From the IMG/VR virus record IMGVR_UViG_3300028588_000016, positions 119,313-183,312 of that record: DNA of 64,000 nt. One strand, 5' to 3'. This DNA comes from a virus. The notes beneath the pieces are model-generated. The model ran no database searches. It saw only the letters and a program-made list of their open reading frames with translations, and was not told where the DNA came from. Shown here piece after piece: positions 12,438 through 52,299 of this stretch. Numbering within the stretch: position 1 is the first letter of the stretch; every line of letters starts with the position of its first letter. The position numbers were made by a program, and so were the translations under genes.

Positions 12438-14000
12438 TTATGAATCAGCTAAAACACATTCTGTAGTAAGAAGCATAGACGCTACGGATGCAGCGTTTTC
12501 TAATGCAACTCTAGTTACTTTAGCCGGATCAATGATACCGTCTTTAACTAGGTCTGTGATTTCTTCATCAAGTACATTATATCCATAATTGACACTTGTG
12601 TATTGTTCTAGATTATGTAGTTCTGTTTTGGCATCAATACCTGCGTTATTTAGTATAGCAGTCATAGGTACTCTTAAAGATTCTTTAACAATTCTGTAAC
12701 CGATACTAAAATCGTTATCTTGATGATCTGAACTTAGTTCATCGTAAGCGTGATAAAGCGTAGCACCACCACCTGCAACAATACCTTCTTCGATTGCAGC
12801 CTTAGTAGCAGCTAGAGCGTCATCTATTCTGTCAGTCTTTTCGCGTAATTCAATTTCTGAACCTGCACCGATATAGATAATTCCTATTCCACCATCTAAC
12901 TTAGCAATACGATCTCTAAGTTTTTCTTTATCCCAATCTTCTTTAGTTGTAGATAATTGTTGTTGTAAGATATTTACTCTTTCAGTAATAGCTTCTTTAT
13001 CGGTAGCGTGCTTAATGAATGTAGTTTTCTCTTTACCAACGATTACTTTATTAGCGAAACCTAAATCGGCCATTGTGGCTTTGTCTAACTTCATGCCATC
13101 TGCTTCACTAATTAAAGTAGCGCCAGTTATAATAGCTAAATCTTCTAAGTATGCACGTCTTGTTTCGTTAAAACCAGGTGCTTTAATAGCGGCAAATTTA
13201 ATTATACCTTGATTAGCGTTTAATATTAAGCTACTTAAAGCTTCTCCTTCTAAGTCTTCGCACACAAGTAACATTGGCTTATCTAGCTTAGCTACTTGTT
13301 CTAAGATTGGAAGAATTTGTTTTATGTTAGTTACTTTTCTATCAAATAATAAAATAGCAACATCTTCTAATTCTGCTTGCATCTTACCCATATCAGTTAC
13401 GAAATGAGCAGATATGTAACCTCTGTCAATCTCAACGCCATTAACAATTTCTACATAAGTAGAAGTGTTTTGACTTTGAGCAGTTTTAACTACACCGTTT
13501 TTACCTACAGCTTCAATAGCTGTTGAGATAAGTTCACCGATATATTCATCGTTATTGGCAGATACTGTAGCTACTTGTTGAATTACTTCTTTAGTGTGTA
13601 CACTTTGACGCACATTCTTTATAAAGCTAGTAACTTGTTTAACAGCAGCATCCATACCTTTTTTAATTCCCATAGGATTAACACCGTTCTTAACGTGAGG
13701 TAATCCTAATTCGATCATACTTTGTGCTAATACTGTAGCAGTAGTAGTTCCATCTCCCGCTTGATCTGCTTGTCTTGAAGCAACATCTTTTACCATTTCC
13801 ACACCCATATTTTGTAATGAGTCATTTAGTGTTACAGCTTTAGCAACTGTTACACCATCTTTAGTCATTACAGGTGATCCATTTCTGTCGATAACTACCG
13901 TTCGTCCTTTTGGACCTAGAGTTACCTTTACTGCATTCGCTAAAATATCAACGCCTTCTTTCAGACCTTGTCTAGCTTCATTCCCATATATTGCTTTCAC
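12438..14000 (-). CDS. groEL: Chaperonin GroEL
   Basis: 520 aa, GTG start. AVKVTLGPKGR, TKDGVTVAK, GDGTTTATV, KAPGF and GIVAGGG motifs; no GGM tail. Confidence 0.96.
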   Translation of the reverse strand: MKAIYGNEARQGLKEGVDILANAVKVTLGPKGRTVVIDRNGSPVMTKDGVTVAKAVTLNDSLQNMGVEMVKDVASRQADQAGDGTTTATVLAQSMIELGLPHVKNGVNPMGIKKGMDAAVKQVTSFIKNVRQSVHTKEVIQQVATVSANNDEYIGELISTAIEAVGKNGVVKTAQSQNTSTYVEIVNGVEIDRGYISAHFVTDMGKMQAELEDVAILLFDRKVTNIKQILPILEQVAKLDKPMLLVCEDLEGEALSSLILNANQGIIKFAAIKAPGFNETRRAYLEDLAIITGATLISEADGMKLDKATMADLGFANKVIVGKEKTTFIKHATDKEAITERVNILQQQLSTTKEDWDKEKLRDRIAKLDGGIGIIYIGAGSEIELREKTDRIDDALAATKAAIEEGIVAGGGATLYHAYDELSSDHQDNDFSIGYRIVKESLRVPMTAILNNAGIDAKTELHNLEQYTSVNYGYNVLDEEITDLVKDGIIDPAKVTRVALENAASVASMLLTTECVLADS

Positions 14001-14003
14001 GAA

Positions 14004-14480: not shown

Positions 14481-14605
14481 ATTTTACTTTTTATAATAAC
14501 CTGAGAAGTATAACTCCGCCAACCTACGATTTGGAGGGAGAAGTGTGCATAGAAGAGGCACTCCCTATCTTCGATCCTTACTCGTGCACAAGCAGAGGGC
14601 TAATG

Positions 14606-14679
14606 TTGCGGGAGGTCGGATTCGAACCGACGATTTCAGGCTTATGAGACCTACGAGATAACCACTTCTCTACTCCGCA
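14606..14679 (-). tRNA. tRNA-Met(CAT), initiator-like
   Basis: TGCGGAG...TAGGT-CTCATAA-GCCTG...GTCGG-TTCGAAT-CCGAC-CTCCCGCA-A; one extra nt in the 3' acceptor strand. Confidence 0.82.
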
Positions 14680-16112: not shown

Positions 16113-16185
16113 CAGTCCCGATGGGAGTCGAACCCACTAAACCCCGATAGACAGTCGGGTACAACAGCCGTTATGCGCCGAGACC
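16113..16185 (-). tRNA. tRNA-Asp(GTC)
   Basis: CCCGA-CTGTCTA-TCGGG (T at position 37); G73. Confidence 0.85.
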
Positions 16186-16624: not shown

Positions 16625-16700
16625 TGGTGGACACGCACAGATTTGAACTGTATCTTCCGAGGTGCAAGCTCGGCGCATTTGCCATTTATGCTAACGGCCC
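16625..16700 (-). tRNA. tRNA-Ala(TGC)
   Basis: CCGAG-CTTGCAC-CTCGG; G3:U70; encoded CCA; imperfect inner acceptor stem. Confidence 0.85.
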
Positions 16701-25469: not shown

Positions 25470-26035
25470 GAGTCTGCACTTGATAGGTCAGGTTTATTAA
25501 TTACAGTAATTTTGGGACAGTTAACCAAGCCACATCGCGTGACTTGGTTTTCTTTATTAAACAAACTCAACCAGGAGAGTATAAAATAGTTTGTGATCAG
25601 ACTGGACGAAACATATATTTATGTCAAACTGTAAAACAATATTTAAAATGGTAATGATTCAAGGAGTTCTTATGTCTTTAGAAGACGCGAGAGAGTACGA
25701 TTTCAATTAAACATTTATTAACCCACACAGTTAGAGTAACAGGTTATGCTGACTCTAACTTTAAAATTATTTTAACATGACATACCAAGAAAGAATTGAT
25801 CTAGCTATATCAAAAGTAATAATGTATCAAGCAGATTCAAACTGCATTAGAGTGTTACACAGAACTGAAAGAGGTTTTAATGTAATCACCTTTAGTTATT
25901 CTTGGTGTAACATGGAACTACTAAGAGATGCAAGAAAAGTAAACATAGATGTAAACTTATATACATTCAAACAATATTTAAACAATCTGTTAACACCTGT
26001 ACTATTGTTGGCAGCTTAATCTAAAACCCAACCCA

Positions 26036-30912: not shown

Positions 30913-30916
30913 AGAA

Positions 30917-31083
30917 TTAACCATTAACCGGATATCATAGGTAAGTCGGAATCATGACCCGGAACATAAATCTTCACATAAATAAAACAAGAGCCTAGTG
31001 GAGTACGTGACAATATGTTCTAATAGCACTCGAGAAAGCTCTAGAAGGTAGCTGCGGGAGGCATAACGAAAGTTAATGGTTAA
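30917..31083 (+). ncRNA. Candidate structured RNA closed by a 12-bp stem
   Basis: TTAACCATTAAC (30917-28) pairs with GTTAATGGTTAA (31072-83); internal AGAGC/GCTCT and a possible pseudoknot GAACATA/TATGTTC. Confidence 0.45.
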
Positions 31084-31086
31084 AAT

Positions 31087-31170
31087 TACGTCTTAGCTCA
31101 GTCTGGTCAGAGTGCCCGCATCCGCATTAACATAAGCGGGAGGTCCGAGGTTCGAATCCTTGAGACGTAA
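31087..31170 (+). tRNA. tRNA-like gene with a 16-nt anticodon loop (possibly elongator Met-derived)
   Basis: Perfect acceptor TACGTCT/AGACGTA, canonical D and T arms; anticodon stem CCCGC/GCGGG encloses ATCCGCATTAACATAA. Confidence 0.75.
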
Positions 31171-31249
31171 CGACGTTACTAGCTAAACGTCATTTGAGTA
31201 CCGTTTTCGTTTAAATGGTGTGCAGGTTCTAGACGCCCTGCACACAACT

Positions 31250-31322
31250 TACACCGTAGCTCAGTTGGTAGAGCTTCCCGCTCTTAACGGGAAAGTCCTT
31301 GGTTCGAGTCCAAGCGGTGTAA
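31250..31322 (+). tRNA. tRNA-Lys(CTT)
   Basis: TCCCG-CTCTTAA-CGGGA. Confidence 0.9.
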
Positions 31323-31327
31323 CAATA

Positions 31328-31400
31328 GACAATGTGGCTCGAGTGGCTAGGCGGCAGACTGCAACTCTGTCCTACAGCGGTTCGAATCCGTTCATTGTCT
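31328..31400 (+). tRNA. tRNA-Cys(GCA)
   Basis: GCAGA-CTGCAAC-TCTGT; U73. Confidence 0.9.
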
Positions 31401-31577
31401 CATTAATTGAATAACAGTATGAAACAAGCAAATAGCGGCTTTATGCACAGCACGCGAAAAATAAATCACTTCGAAACCGACTATCGGGAAAGCTTGGAAG
31501 GTCTGAATGCAAGCTTGTTATATCTGACTGCAGAGAAGATATAATATGTGAGGACGTAGAGGAACACTATTAAACAA

Positions 31578-31779
31578 TAATTGCTAAACCCTGAAAGAAA
31601 CTACGAGGTAACTCGTAGAATGGATGCTGTCATATGACTTACACAGCTATATACCATTGGGAGTGTCAAGCTAGATCCTTATTATCGAGTGCTGAAGATA
31701 ATGAGGATGCTAAAGCAAGGGGTGAGAGCCCTGCAGTCACAATCATAAAGATTGAGAGCGTTAATTTAGATAGCAATTA
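31578..31779 (+). ncRNA. Candidate multibranch structured RNA
   Basis: Closing stem TAATTGCTA/TAGCAATTA; inner CTACGAG-GTAA-CTCGTAG, ATCCTTATTATC/GATAATGAGGAT and GCAAGGG/CCCTGC. Confidence 0.45.
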
Positions 31780-31806
31780 GAGGGCGCGATGCCCTCTATT
31801 GTTTTT
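31778..31806 (+). terminator. Terminator-like hairpin
   Basis: TAGAGGGC-GCGAT-GCCCTCTA followed by TTGTTTTT. Confidence 0.65.
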
Positions 31807-31923
31807 AATTGTCCACTATTCACATCCTAATCACTAAAGCTATGGAACCACTAGAAGCTTTATTAATCATTACAGGTATAGGAGCAGTATTGCTCGTTTC
31901 TTATTTGTACAGCAAACACTTTA

Positions 31924-39465: not shown

Positions 39466-39821
39466 GGGCGCGTTCTTGGTACTTGAGCGGGTAAGAACTA
39501 AAAGAGAAGCATGTAGTGCGTTGTTTGTGTGCACTTAAAAGAAGCATTCACATTTTTAACTGGCACTCCGGTGTACAGAATGGCTGCCTAGTCTCTAGGA
39601 GACGTAGTCATTCGCCCAGAAATGGGTTCGCGATCCATGACACTTGGGATCACATACTCGTGTTTAGACTTTGGCTGCAGTTGTGAGACATCTGAACTGC
39701 AGATAGTTGTCTGTTTACAACAGAATAGGCCGTTCCTTATAGCCAATAAATGTAGGATAAACATGTAATGAAGGCTTTTACTATTTACAACGTGACGAGG
39801 GTTCGACTCCCTCCGCGTCCA
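39466..39821 (+). ncRNA. ssrA: tmRNA (transfer-messenger RNA), tag (A)GTPVYRMAA* at 39562-39591
   Basis: Acceptor GGGCGCG/CGCGTCC-A with G3:U70; T-arm GAGGG-TTCGACT-CCCTC; AAGCATGTAG segment; TTTTAACT before the resume codon GGC; tag ends ...MAA-TAG; 356 nt. Confidence 0.92.
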
Positions 39822-39858
39822 CTATGCACATGGTGTGCATCAATTAAATTAAATTACG

Positions 39859-40688: not shown

Positions 40689-40771
40689 GCGTCTGTGGCC
40701 GAGCGGTCGAAGGCAAAGGCTTCCAAACCCTTTAACGAAAGTTCACCAAGGTTCGAATCCTTGCGGGCGTG
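40689..40771 (+). tRNA. tRNA-Trp(CCA) with atypical long variable arm
   Basis: AAGGC-TTCCAAA-CCCTT; 14-nt variable region TAACGAAAGTTCAC; class-II-like D arm GCC/GGC; G73. Confidence 0.8.
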
Positions 40772-40791
40772 CAAAATTAAAAACAAATACC

Positions 40792-46221: not shown

Positions 46222-46616
46222 TGGAAAATCAATTCATTGCCGCATCACGTTTAAAACTACGTTTCGAAGCAGGTAAAGGTTTAGTAACAGCAGAAGAACT
46301 TTGGGCATTGCCGTTAACTAAAATTAACGAAATGGCTGTTGCTGTAAATAAAGTAGTAACTAGTAGCACTGAAAGCTTCTTAGATGAAGATACAGTTAAA
46401 AATAGTAAAGAAGCTAAAGAAGCTAACTTAAAGTTAGACATCTTAAAGTATATCATTACTACTCGCCAAGCTGAAACTAAAGCCAAAACACAAGCCGCTG
46501 AACGTAGTCAAGAAGCTGCTACTCTTAAGAACTTATTAGCAACTAAGAAATTAGAAGCTTTAGGTAATCTTTCGGAAGCAGAGCTTGAGAAACGTATTGC
46601 TGACTTAGGCGTTTAA
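46221..46616 (+). CDS. Conserved coiled-coil partner of the 675-aa protein
   Basis: F..ASRLKLRF...KG.VTAEELWALPL; translationally coupled (TAATG). Confidence 0.7.
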   Translation: MENQFIAASRLKLRFEAGKGLVTAEELWALPLTKINEMAVAVNKVVTSSTESFLDEDTVKNSKEAKEANLKLDILKYIITTRQAETKAKTQAAERSQEAATLKNLLATKKLEALGNLSEAELEKRIADLGV

Positions 46617-49488: not shown

Positions 49489-49491
49489 ACT

Positions 49492-50631
49492 ATGACTAGA
49501 GCGCAAATTGTGATTGATCTTATGTTCGGAGATTGTGGAAAAGGTGTAACAACCGATTCGTTAGCAATCAGAGCGCCTAAGAATTCAGTCAACGTGAGAT
49601 TTTCAGGTGGTCAACAGTGTGGTCACACAGTATACATTGATGAGAAAACAAATCATGTATTCTCTAATTTCGGTTCAGCTTCATTCAGAGGATTACCTAC
49701 ATATTTTACTGAACATTGTTTAGTATATCCTAAAACGATGTACGAAGAATATCTTACTCTATTACAATTAGATGTAAACCCTAAAGTTGTAATTCATCCA
49801 TTAGCTAAGTTAACAACTAATATAGATGTTGCTTGGAATAGAGCATTAGGATCTTTTAAAACAAACGGTACAGTAGGATTAGGTATCGGTGCAACGATGA
49901 CTAGACATAACACTAGTGGTCACAAATTGTATGCTTTTGATTTGCTTAACATGGAAATGTTAGCACATAAATTGCATAACATTCGTAATTATTATGTTCA
50001 GATGGCTATAAGAACTCTTCGTCAGGAAGATTACATAGCATTTCTTCATGAATGTGATAACACTACTTCTGTGTTCCTAGAGACTTGTTTCAAGATGGGT
50101 AAATACCTACAGATACAAGGATATGACTATTTGAATCAATTCGATTTAGGCATTTTCGAAGGATCTCAAGGGGTTTTGCTCGATATGGATCATGGTATCT
50201 TTCCAAACGTTACGTACGCAAATACCACTGCGAAAAACGCTGAGGAGGTGTTAAATCTCTTGGGTGTTGGTAAACATCATAGACAATATTTCTTATTAAC
50301 TAGGGCTTATACTCATCGTCACGGTGCAGGATGGATGCCTCATGAACAATCAGAAGTAACACTTGTTAATGATGAAATGGAAATAAACCAATGTTGTCCA
50401 TGGCAAGGTGAGCCTAGATCTTCTCCTTTCTGTCTTAATACTGTTAAAACAGCTATTGAGATAGTTAAGCTTTATTCTAATATCAGTATCTTTAATACTA
50501 ACATCATCTTAGGTTTTCTTGACCGAGTGACGTTAGAGGAACAGAACAGAGTGATAAAAGAATGTGAAGATCTTGAATACAGAGTTCAGCATCGTTGGAC
50601 ACACATATCCGAATTGTTATACCTTAAATAA
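49492..50631 (+). CDS. Adenylosuccinate-synthetase-like (PurA-fold) protein, divergent
   Basis: FGDCGKG, RFSGGQQCGHT, HVFSNFGS, GTVGLGIG, FEGSQGVLLD, TRAYTHRHGAG. Confidence 0.8.
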   Translation: MTRAQIVIDLMFGDCGKGVTTDSLAIRAPKNSVNVRFSGGQQCGHTVYIDEKTNHVFSNFGSASFRGLPTYFTEHCLVYPKTMYEEYLTLLQLDVNPKVVIHPLAKLTTNIDVAWNRALGSFKTNGTVGLGIGATMTRHNTSGHKLYAFDLLNMEMLAHKLHNIRNYYVQMAIRTLRQEDYIAFLHECDNTTSVFLETCFKMGKYLQIQGYDYLNQFDLGIFEGSQGVLLDMDHGIFPNVTYANTTAKNAEEVLNLLGVGKHHRQYFLLTRAYTHRHGAGWMPHEQSEVTLVNDEMEINQCCPWQGEPRSSPFCLNTVKTAIEIVKLYSNISIFNTNIILGFLDRVTLEEQNRVIKECEDLEYRVQHRWTHISELLYLK

Positions 50632-52206: not shown

Positions 52207-52299
52207 ACGCATGTAGTTTAGATAGGACGAGAACACGCCAAATCCCAGGCACCAGAAGCATTGGCTGAAGAGACATGGGTTCGAATCCCGTCGTGTGTA
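52207..52299 (+). tRNA. tRNA-like gene with a 19-nt anticodon loop (possibly Gly-derived)
   Basis: Acceptor ACGCATG/CGTGTGT; D-stem GTTT/GAAC; stem GCCAA/TTGGC encloses ATCCCAGGCACCAGAAGCA; T-arm ATGGG-TTCGAAT-CCCGT. Confidence 0.7.

Follow-up and report, generated by a model that had tools for sequence, protein, structure and literature searches.

The tRNA-shaped gene at position 31087 of the window raises the question of what becomes of a transcript that has a complete cloverleaf body and an anticodon loop of 16 nt. It might be spliced into a working tRNA, be the fresh remnant of one, decode with its enlarged loop, or serve the phage in some way other than translation. The window is the whole 64,000-nucleotide stretch of DNA analysed, comprising the final 64 kb of an IMG/VR virus record of 183,312 bp, and all coordinates refer to it unless stated otherwise.

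The phage and the tRNA-shaped gene at 31087

A separately assembled ENA contig (ERZ27250822, 183,315 bp) is identical to the record over 6,393 bases around the 31087 gene, and a Logan contig from run SRR8466244 contains the same flanking genes in the same order, so that an assembly slip within 31087-31170 is unlikely. A first-pass annotation, made from the sequence alone, had considered that the insertion might prove to be an assembly artefact; across the gene the independent assembly is identical and the enlarged loop is retained. With a second gene bearing the same kind of loop 21 kb away, an artefact of assembly or sequencing is scarcely credible.

The phage encodes TerL, portal and GroEL proteins, and its nearest TerL relatives are those of crAss-like phages, at no more than 46% identity in GenBank and 55% in IMG/VR. 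It is therefore a divergent, large crAss-like phage, and its host is presumed to belong to the Bacteroidota. It uses the standard code and has 35% G+C; its long ORFs are intact under code 11 and gain nothing from stop readthrough. ARAGORN detects 19 normal tRNAs and Rfam alone adds two, at 16113-16185 and 16628-16700 on the minus strand, one of which is Asp(GTC)-like (35.5 bits) and the other, whose T stem has 4 bp and whose T loop is shorter than normal, Ala(TGC)-like (39.6 bits). An 84-nt tRNA at 40689-40772 (plus strand) combines the anticodon CCA (Trp) with a class II body, in which the D stem has 3 bp, the variable arm is a stem-loop and the discriminator is G. Such a body is unusual in a tRNA-Trp, and this tRNA might carry another amino acid. 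The phage also possesses a tmRNA (39466-39822, plus strand; tag peptide GTPVYRMAA by ARAGORN; Rfam 59.7 bits) and a hammerhead ribozyme, which matches RAGATH-1 at 25564-25630 on the plus strand with 60.7 bits against a gathering score of 56.3. The GroEL chaperonin gene (12438-14003, minus strand; PHROG 5725, E = 2e-152) adjoins a 15-gene tRNA array, and the protein encoded at 49489-50631 (plus strand) resembles PHROG 1211, which carries an adenylosuccinate-synthetase-like annotation (E = 1.8e-44); the match may hint at DNA chemistry with modified bases. None of the tRNA genes examined encodes its own CCA end, and a gene for a CCA-adding enzyme lies elsewhere in the genome (Table 1).

All 21 stem pairs of the 31087 gene form, two of them as G-U. 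The acceptor stem (31087-31093/31163-31169) is Watson-Crick in 7/7 pairs, the D stem (31096-31099/31110-31113) has four pairs and the T stem (31146-31150/31158-31162) five, each including one G-U, and U8, A9, G18G19, the variable loop AGGTC (31141-31145), the T loop TTCGAAT and a discriminator A at 31170 are all present. The match to the Rfam tRNA model RF00005 coincides exactly with the extent of the gene; it covers model positions 1-71 and scores 51.0 bits against a gathering threshold of 29 bits (E = 2e-9, or 5e-8 when the whole window is scanned), and its alignment has a 14-nt insertion in place of five loop positions of the model. Despite the penalty for that insertion, the score exceeds those of several normal tRNAs of the same phage. 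Decay of stems or conserved positions, the sign of a pseudogene, is therefore absent, and the first-pass description of canonical arms on an undecayed body, with a 16-nt anticodon loop that is 9 nt too long, agrees with both the sequence and the Rfam alignment. ARAGORN makes no call here by default; with introns allowed (-i) it returns a cloverleaf for tRNA-Met(CAT) with a 9-nt intron. The BLAST neighbours of the gene among phage tRNAs are a mixture of Pro, Ile, Thr and Arg isotypes. A genome scan for its anticodon stem returned mostly Actinobacteria tRNA-Pro and was uninformative, and isotype assignment by nearest neighbour, confounded by a reference set with the same bias, was discarded.

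The anticodon stem, G+C-rich and fully paired (31115-31119 CCCGC/31136-31140 GCGGG), encloses the loop ATCCGCATTAACATAA (31120-31135), which is wholly unpaired in the minimum free energy (MFE) and centroid folds. A functional decoder has a 7-nt loop with U33, a 3-nt anticodon and a purine at position 37; the 31087 gene lacks this arrangement, and it is close to certain that its RNA, as transcribed, is unable to decode. The five 3' bases of the loop, CATAA, resemble the 3' side of a CAU anticodon loop, and the loop of both normal CAT tRNAs of the phage is CTCATAA. The 5' side is different: the loop starts with CT or TT, with a pyrimidine at position 32, in 19/19 normal tRNAs, whereas the 31087 loop and that of a second odd gene at 52207 both start A-T-C-C, with A at position 32. 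Within the 31087 arm, CAT occurs three times at a period of six (CATCCG CATTAA CATAAG) and CCGCAT twice in tandem; the periodic CAT, noticed post hoc, is seen in 1.1% of shuffles. The arm of the 52207 gene has CCA three times at a period of seven, also noticed post hoc and seen in 2.4% of shuffles. In both genes the repeats extend from the 5' strand of the anticodon stem into the loop, suggesting from the sequence that the enlarged loops arose by slippage-type duplication at the hairpin. A target-site duplication was rejected, the 9-nt insert not being a tandem copy of either flank, as was an antisense role, the longest complement of the loop in the phage genome being 11 nt, which is at chance level (10-13 nt for shuffled loops).

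Table 1. Locations of the tRNA-shaped genes and associated features (window coordinates unless stated otherwise).
Feature	Position	Strand	Basis
tRNA-shaped gene, complete cloverleaf body with oversized anticodon loop	31087..31170	+	Rfam RF00005, ARAGORN -i, sequence
Anticodon arm, stem CCCGC/GCGGG (5/5) around 16-nt loop	31115..31140	+	sequence
Structured leader, 12-bp closing stem TTAACCATTAAC / GTTAATGGTTAA	30917..31084	+	fold
tRNA-Lys(CTT), normal	31250..31323	+	ARAGORN; Rfam 68.5 bits
tRNA-Cys(GCA), normal, last of small tRNA cluster	31328..31401	+	ARAGORN; Rfam 44.7 bits
tRNA-shaped gene, 19-nt anticodon loop	52207..52299	+	Rfam 34.7 bits; ARAGORN -i
CCA-adding enzyme, PF01743	genome 51024-52262, outside window	+	profile match, 78.8 bits
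tRNA-shaped gene, 13-nt loop GCCAAATTAACTT	L137:12703-12784 (IMGVR_UViG_3300012984_000013)	+	sequence

The sister gene and the question of splicing

The gene at 52207 has a stem GCCAA/TTGGC (52237-52241/52261-52265) around the 19-nt loop ATCCCAGGCACCAGAAGCA (52242-52260), and its defect, as at 31087, is confined to the anticodon loop. ARAGORN -i reads it as Gly(CCC) with a 12-nt insert at 37/38. Its body has A1:U72, a discriminator A73, two bases between the D and anticodon stems, a 9-nt variable region and G3:U70, which is the alanine identity pair and not glycine-like.

For both genes, every contiguous excision that leaves 7 nt was enumerated, and a product was counted as canonical if it had U33 and a purine at 37. 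The 31087 loop is canonical for registers 2-5, with the anticodons CAT, CCT or CCG, and at the 37/38 register it yields AT-CCG-CA, which has C at position 37 and is not canonical. The 52207 loop is canonical only for registers 6-7, with the anticodon CCC, and so no single register is canonical for both genes. Deletion of CCGCATTAA or, equally, of CGCATTAAC from the 31087 loop leaves AT-CAT-AA. The proposal that splicing supplies an elongator tRNA-Met therefore holds to the extent that this excision works, in ARAGORN as well as on paper, and that a CAT loop is one of the outcomes, but CCT and CCG loops are equally canonical and evidence of splicing was not found. About one in three random loops of the same lengths also yields a loop that looks canonical.

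No bulge-helix-bulge (BHB) or bulge-helix-loop is present at the junctions of the 31087 gene in either predicted fold, and its insert has no complement to the anticodon region. The first-pass annotation had suggested looking elsewhere in the genome for splicing and repair genes, and these were not found: the phage genome has no match to the EndA splicing endonuclease, RtcB, Rnl2-type ligase, AAA_33 kinase (Pnk) or 2',5'-RNA ligase families (profiles PF01974, PF01139, PF09414, PF13671 and PF13563), for all five of which positive controls matched in reference genomes; the search for the T4 Rnl1 family (PF09511) was run without a positive control. Among the positive-control genomes, Bacteroides thetaiotaomicron has RtcB. 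As the host may supply splicing enzymes, the spliced tRNA-Met reading is possible but unsupported. The insert is, as had been noted, too short for a group I intron: it is 9 nt long, and an Rfam cmscan at E values up to 1 over the gene found no intron match. A deleted remnant of such an intron was also rejected, the insert having neither a terminal G nor recognisable intron ends.

The codons ATG and ATA are heavily used by the phage (23.4 and 21.5 per 1000), and the 52207 gene, if resolved, would be its only Gly tRNA. A CCC anticodon reads only GGG well. GGG is the rarest Gly codon of the phage (1.7 per 1000, about 2.5% of its Gly codons) and, given this and the ease with which random loops are resolved, the argument that the odd genes complete the tRNA set is weak. 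The A-T-C-C starts would also leave the "spliced" products unlike the phage's own tRNAs. As to the existing CAT tRNAs, the gene near 14606 that had been called fMet-like starts at 14605 and has acceptor mismatches and only two of the three G-C pairs that mark initiator tRNAs, so that its initiator identity is not clear; TilS was not found in the phage genome.

Flanking RNA and oversized loops in other viral sequences

The leader upstream of the 31087 gene, about 170 nt long, has a perfect closing stem of 12 bp, which stops 3 nt short of the tRNA. Its fold has a z score of -2.44, with 4/200 shuffles as good, and an Rfam scan found no family match; it is probably released by 5' processing. The closing stem contains CATTAAC, which also occurs in the oversized loop. 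A duplex between loop and leader is no better than that formed by shuffled loops (p about 0.2), nor does pairing with the downstream spacer beat shuffled loops, and a link between the leader and the odd loop is not supported. The tRNA-Lys lies 79 nt downstream on the same strand and is likely to be on the same transcript, and a terminator-like hairpin is present at 31778-31798. The 1-kb stretch 30913-31923 holds no convincing ORF. The 130-aa protein encoded upstream has no homologue among 5.8 billion proteins, and the 393-aa protein encoded downstream has homologues only at 43% identity or less, in unrelated contexts.

Relatives of the 31087 gene were sought in viral and metagenome contigs with exact DNA patterns for its body and loop, which matched nothing, and with gapped patterns that left the loop length free, which found no copy of the body. 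A blastn search of GenBank phages gave only generic tRNA similarity to mixed isotypes. The TerL relatives of the phage, all at 55% identity or less, lie mostly on short contigs, and tRNAs are wholly absent from the nearest GenBank record. The suggestion that other phages might share the architecture is thus borne out in part: no orthologue of the 31087 gene was found, but other viral genes with oversized loops exist.

One of these is on L137, a distant relative of the phage reached via a conserved 686-aa protein. No excision from its 13-nt loop yields a canonical loop, and its tertiary pair 19:56 has A:U in place of G:C; this compensated exchange shows selection on the fold of that gene. The loop contains ATTAAC, as does that of the 31087 gene, and the bodies are similar. 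Orthology was rejected: the acceptor stems are unrelated, and the genes are not syntenic, the gene upstream of the L137 tRNA resembling window 46227-46589, 3' of which this phage has only a hairpin. ATTAAC occurs in 1/39 oversized loops among the matches listed in the unbiased census described below, and the resemblance is regarded as coincidental.

The census searched viral contigs for genes of the same common body type as that at 31087, with the pattern TAGCTCAG ... AGGTC NNN GGTTC and an over-long anticodon arm, and gave at least 120 matches. Among the matches listed, clean cloverleaves could be drawn for 39 distinct genes, whose loops span 12-42 nt. The oversized loop resolves to a canonical one in 16/39 of these, mostly tRNA-Tyr or tRNA-Asn with inserts at 37/38, many on giant-virus contigs; in the other 23/39 no single excision resolves it. 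Tidy tRNA bodies with non-decoding anticodon regions are therefore common in viral sequence. Two contigs (L143:362-449, plus strand, and the same sequence in L144, minus strand) carry a tRNA-shaped gene whose 29-nt loop contains ATTAAC twice along with its complement GTTAAT and could form a hairpin of its own. The related 18-nt loops CCCTTAGCTAAAAGACAC and CCCGTAGCTAAACGACTT, on two different phage contigs of the census (L168 and L229), look like a conserved oversized-loop family.

Possible roles of the gene and its place among known tRNA insertions

The reading that we tentatively prefer, at a little under an even chance, is that the 31087 gene specifies a non-decoding, tRNA-derived RNA kept by the phage. 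It would be transcribed together with the adjacent tRNA-Lys and tRNA-Cys and, because its acceptor, D and T arms are canonical, host RNase P and RNase Z would be expected to cut it out, after which the phage's own CCA-adding enzyme may add CCA. The RNA is predicted to fold into an L-shape in which a floppy 16-nt single strand replaces the 7-nt anticodon loop. Its ancestor was most probably an ordinary tRNA whose loop grew when a 6-nt unit, beginning in the 5' strand of its anticodon stem, underwent slippage-type duplication, and selection would then have retained this product and the likewise-built 52207 sister as non-decoding look-alikes. Their most plausible job would be to tie up or divert a factor that recognises either tRNA bodies or anticodon loops; possible targets of such a decoy would be a host nuclease that acts on anticodon loops and proteins that modify or bind tRNA. 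A retained look-alike is favoured on account of the flawless body, the frequency of look-alikes in phages and the sister gene, whose defect is likewise confined to the loop and whose loop also starts A-U-C-C; it is also in keeping with the lack of a common excision register, of a BHB and of splicing enzymes, the presence of a CCA-adding enzyme, the little use of a Gly(CCC) tRNA, the compensated pair of the L137 gene and the repeats in both arms. Against it stand the absence of an orthologue from the collections searched, complementarity to the genome and flanks at the level of chance, and the 3' CATAA, which fits a recent insertion, be it in a pseudogene or an intron, as well. A bolder version, that both odd tRNAs are either purpose-built mimics baiting or jamming a host anticodon-loop factor, such as the anticodon nuclease of a Bacteroidota defence system, or substrates of a new bacterial or phage cut-and-rejoin pathway that removes 9-12-nt inserts, is unlikely even when its two halves are taken together.

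The 3' CATAA is accommodated equally by a fresh pseudogene, in which a working tRNA, probably Met or Ile2 with the anticodon CAU, would have received a 9-nt insertion by slippage that is neutral and has yet to be followed by decay: a 9-nt deletion restores a canonical CAU loop, and the tandem CCGCAT and period-6 CAT resemble slippage. A phage can do without its own tRNAs if the host provides them, the sister's codon is used so rarely that its loss would be cheap, and conservation was not found in searches of viral and metagenome contigs. This account is nevertheless rather unlikely, as it calls for two independent insertions confined to loops with all stems intact (about (7/75) squared if insertions fall evenly) in a gene whose body outscores several working tRNAs of the phage, and as A32 and A-T-C-C, present in both odd loops and in 0/19 normal tRNAs, indicate that the loop flanks are not simply those of an ancestral loop. 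The same A32 would persist in the product of a protein-spliced mini-intron, in which an endonuclease removes the 9 nt and a ligase, for example host RtcB, joins the halves into a third CAU tRNA (elongator Met or Ile2). The clean tRNA-Met(CAT) of ARAGORN -i, the heavy use of ATG and ATA, the sister's resolution to the sole Gly tRNA by excision at the classical 37/38 site, the RtcB of B. thetaiotaomicron and the unexplained "introns" published for Lak megaphage tRNAs (PMC6784885) all speak for splicing. We consider it improbable all the same, given that there is no BHB or other loop pairing, that the phage has none of the five enzyme families, that the excision registers of the two genes differ, that Gly(CCC) would be almost useless and that about a third of random loops are "resolvable"; we know of no mechanism that removes 9-12-nt inserts from bacterial tRNAs. 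Finally, the enlarged loop might itself decode, as a frameshifting, multi-base-codon or ribosome-stalling tRNA. A 3' stack of CATAA could in principle present CAU, and frameshift suppressors with 8-9-nt anticodon loops exist, but 16 nt is, to our knowledge, 7 nt beyond the largest loops that decode, and the long ORFs of the phage are intact in the standard code without sign of recoding; the frameshifting tRNA put forward in the first-pass annotation is thus very improbable for a loop of this size.

The tRNA genes of Lak megaphages contain "enigmatic introns" (Devoto et al. 2019; PMC6784885): they are too long for bacterial gene finders and become canonical only once an insert in the anticodon loop is removed in eukaryote mode. 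The Lak inserts are long, the one in the tRNA-Tyr example measuring about 93 nt, and conserved, being identical from cohort to cohort, with no group I structure and no known splicing mechanism (PMC6784885). The 31087 gene likewise becomes a canonical tRNA when 9 nt are removed from its anticodon loop by ARAGORN -i; unlike the long, conserved Lak inserts, its own is short and lacks structure, and the gene itself stood alone in our searches. Introns are dense in large crAss-like phages (PMC7886860), and the main crAss-like genomics papers make no mention of tRNA inserts.

A short anticodon-loop insert in an otherwise normal tRNA, at 37/38 in the case of the sister, also recalls the protein-spliced introns of archaea and eukaryotes. 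Those introns have a BHB motif and are processed by the EndA/Sen endonuclease and the RtcB or Trl1 ligase, whereas the 31087 gene has no BHB and no pairing between anticodon and insert, belongs to a phage without EndA in a bacterial host group, and has its insert elsewhere than 37/38, the register that would leave C37. Bacterial group I introns interrupt the anticodon loops of tRNA-Leu(UAA), fMet, Ile(CAU) and Arg(CCU), and run to hundreds of bases, including a P1-P9 core that takes roughly 200 nt or more. The 31087 insert likewise interrupts the anticodon loop of a bacterial-type tRNA gene, but 9 nt without a terminal G or an Rfam intron match cannot self-splice. Frameshift-suppressor tRNAs, such as sufD, sufA6 and sufJ, and engineered quadruplet decoders share the enlarged anticodon loop on a normal tRNA body; they decode despite one or two extra bases, in contrast to the gene at 31087, which has nine and belongs to a phage whose long ORFs show no recoding. 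A further likeness is to the viral tRNA-shaped genes of the census, in which canonical acceptor, D and T arms accompany an anticodon region unable to decode. Most of those genes have longer and often structured or conserved inserts, whereas the 31087 loop is short, unstructured and resolvable to CAU. With only nine extra bases, it lies at the short, unstructured end of the range and is a short-insert variant of the known but unexplained phage look-alikes.

As a singleton, the 31087 gene is a lead and not a discovery. It has a companion in the same genome with a common loop start, and the repeats in the arms of both genes hint at how the loops originated. Phage tRNA genes serve counter-defence as well as codon supply, and the combination of an intact tRNA body with a loop that is useless for decoding points to a job outside translation. 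Either a mimic or a cut-and-rejoin substrate would, if true, bring a new kind of tRNA biology to the conflict between phage and host, and if such genes are decoys or novel splicing substrates they would add a new layer both to that conflict and to bacterial tRNA processing.
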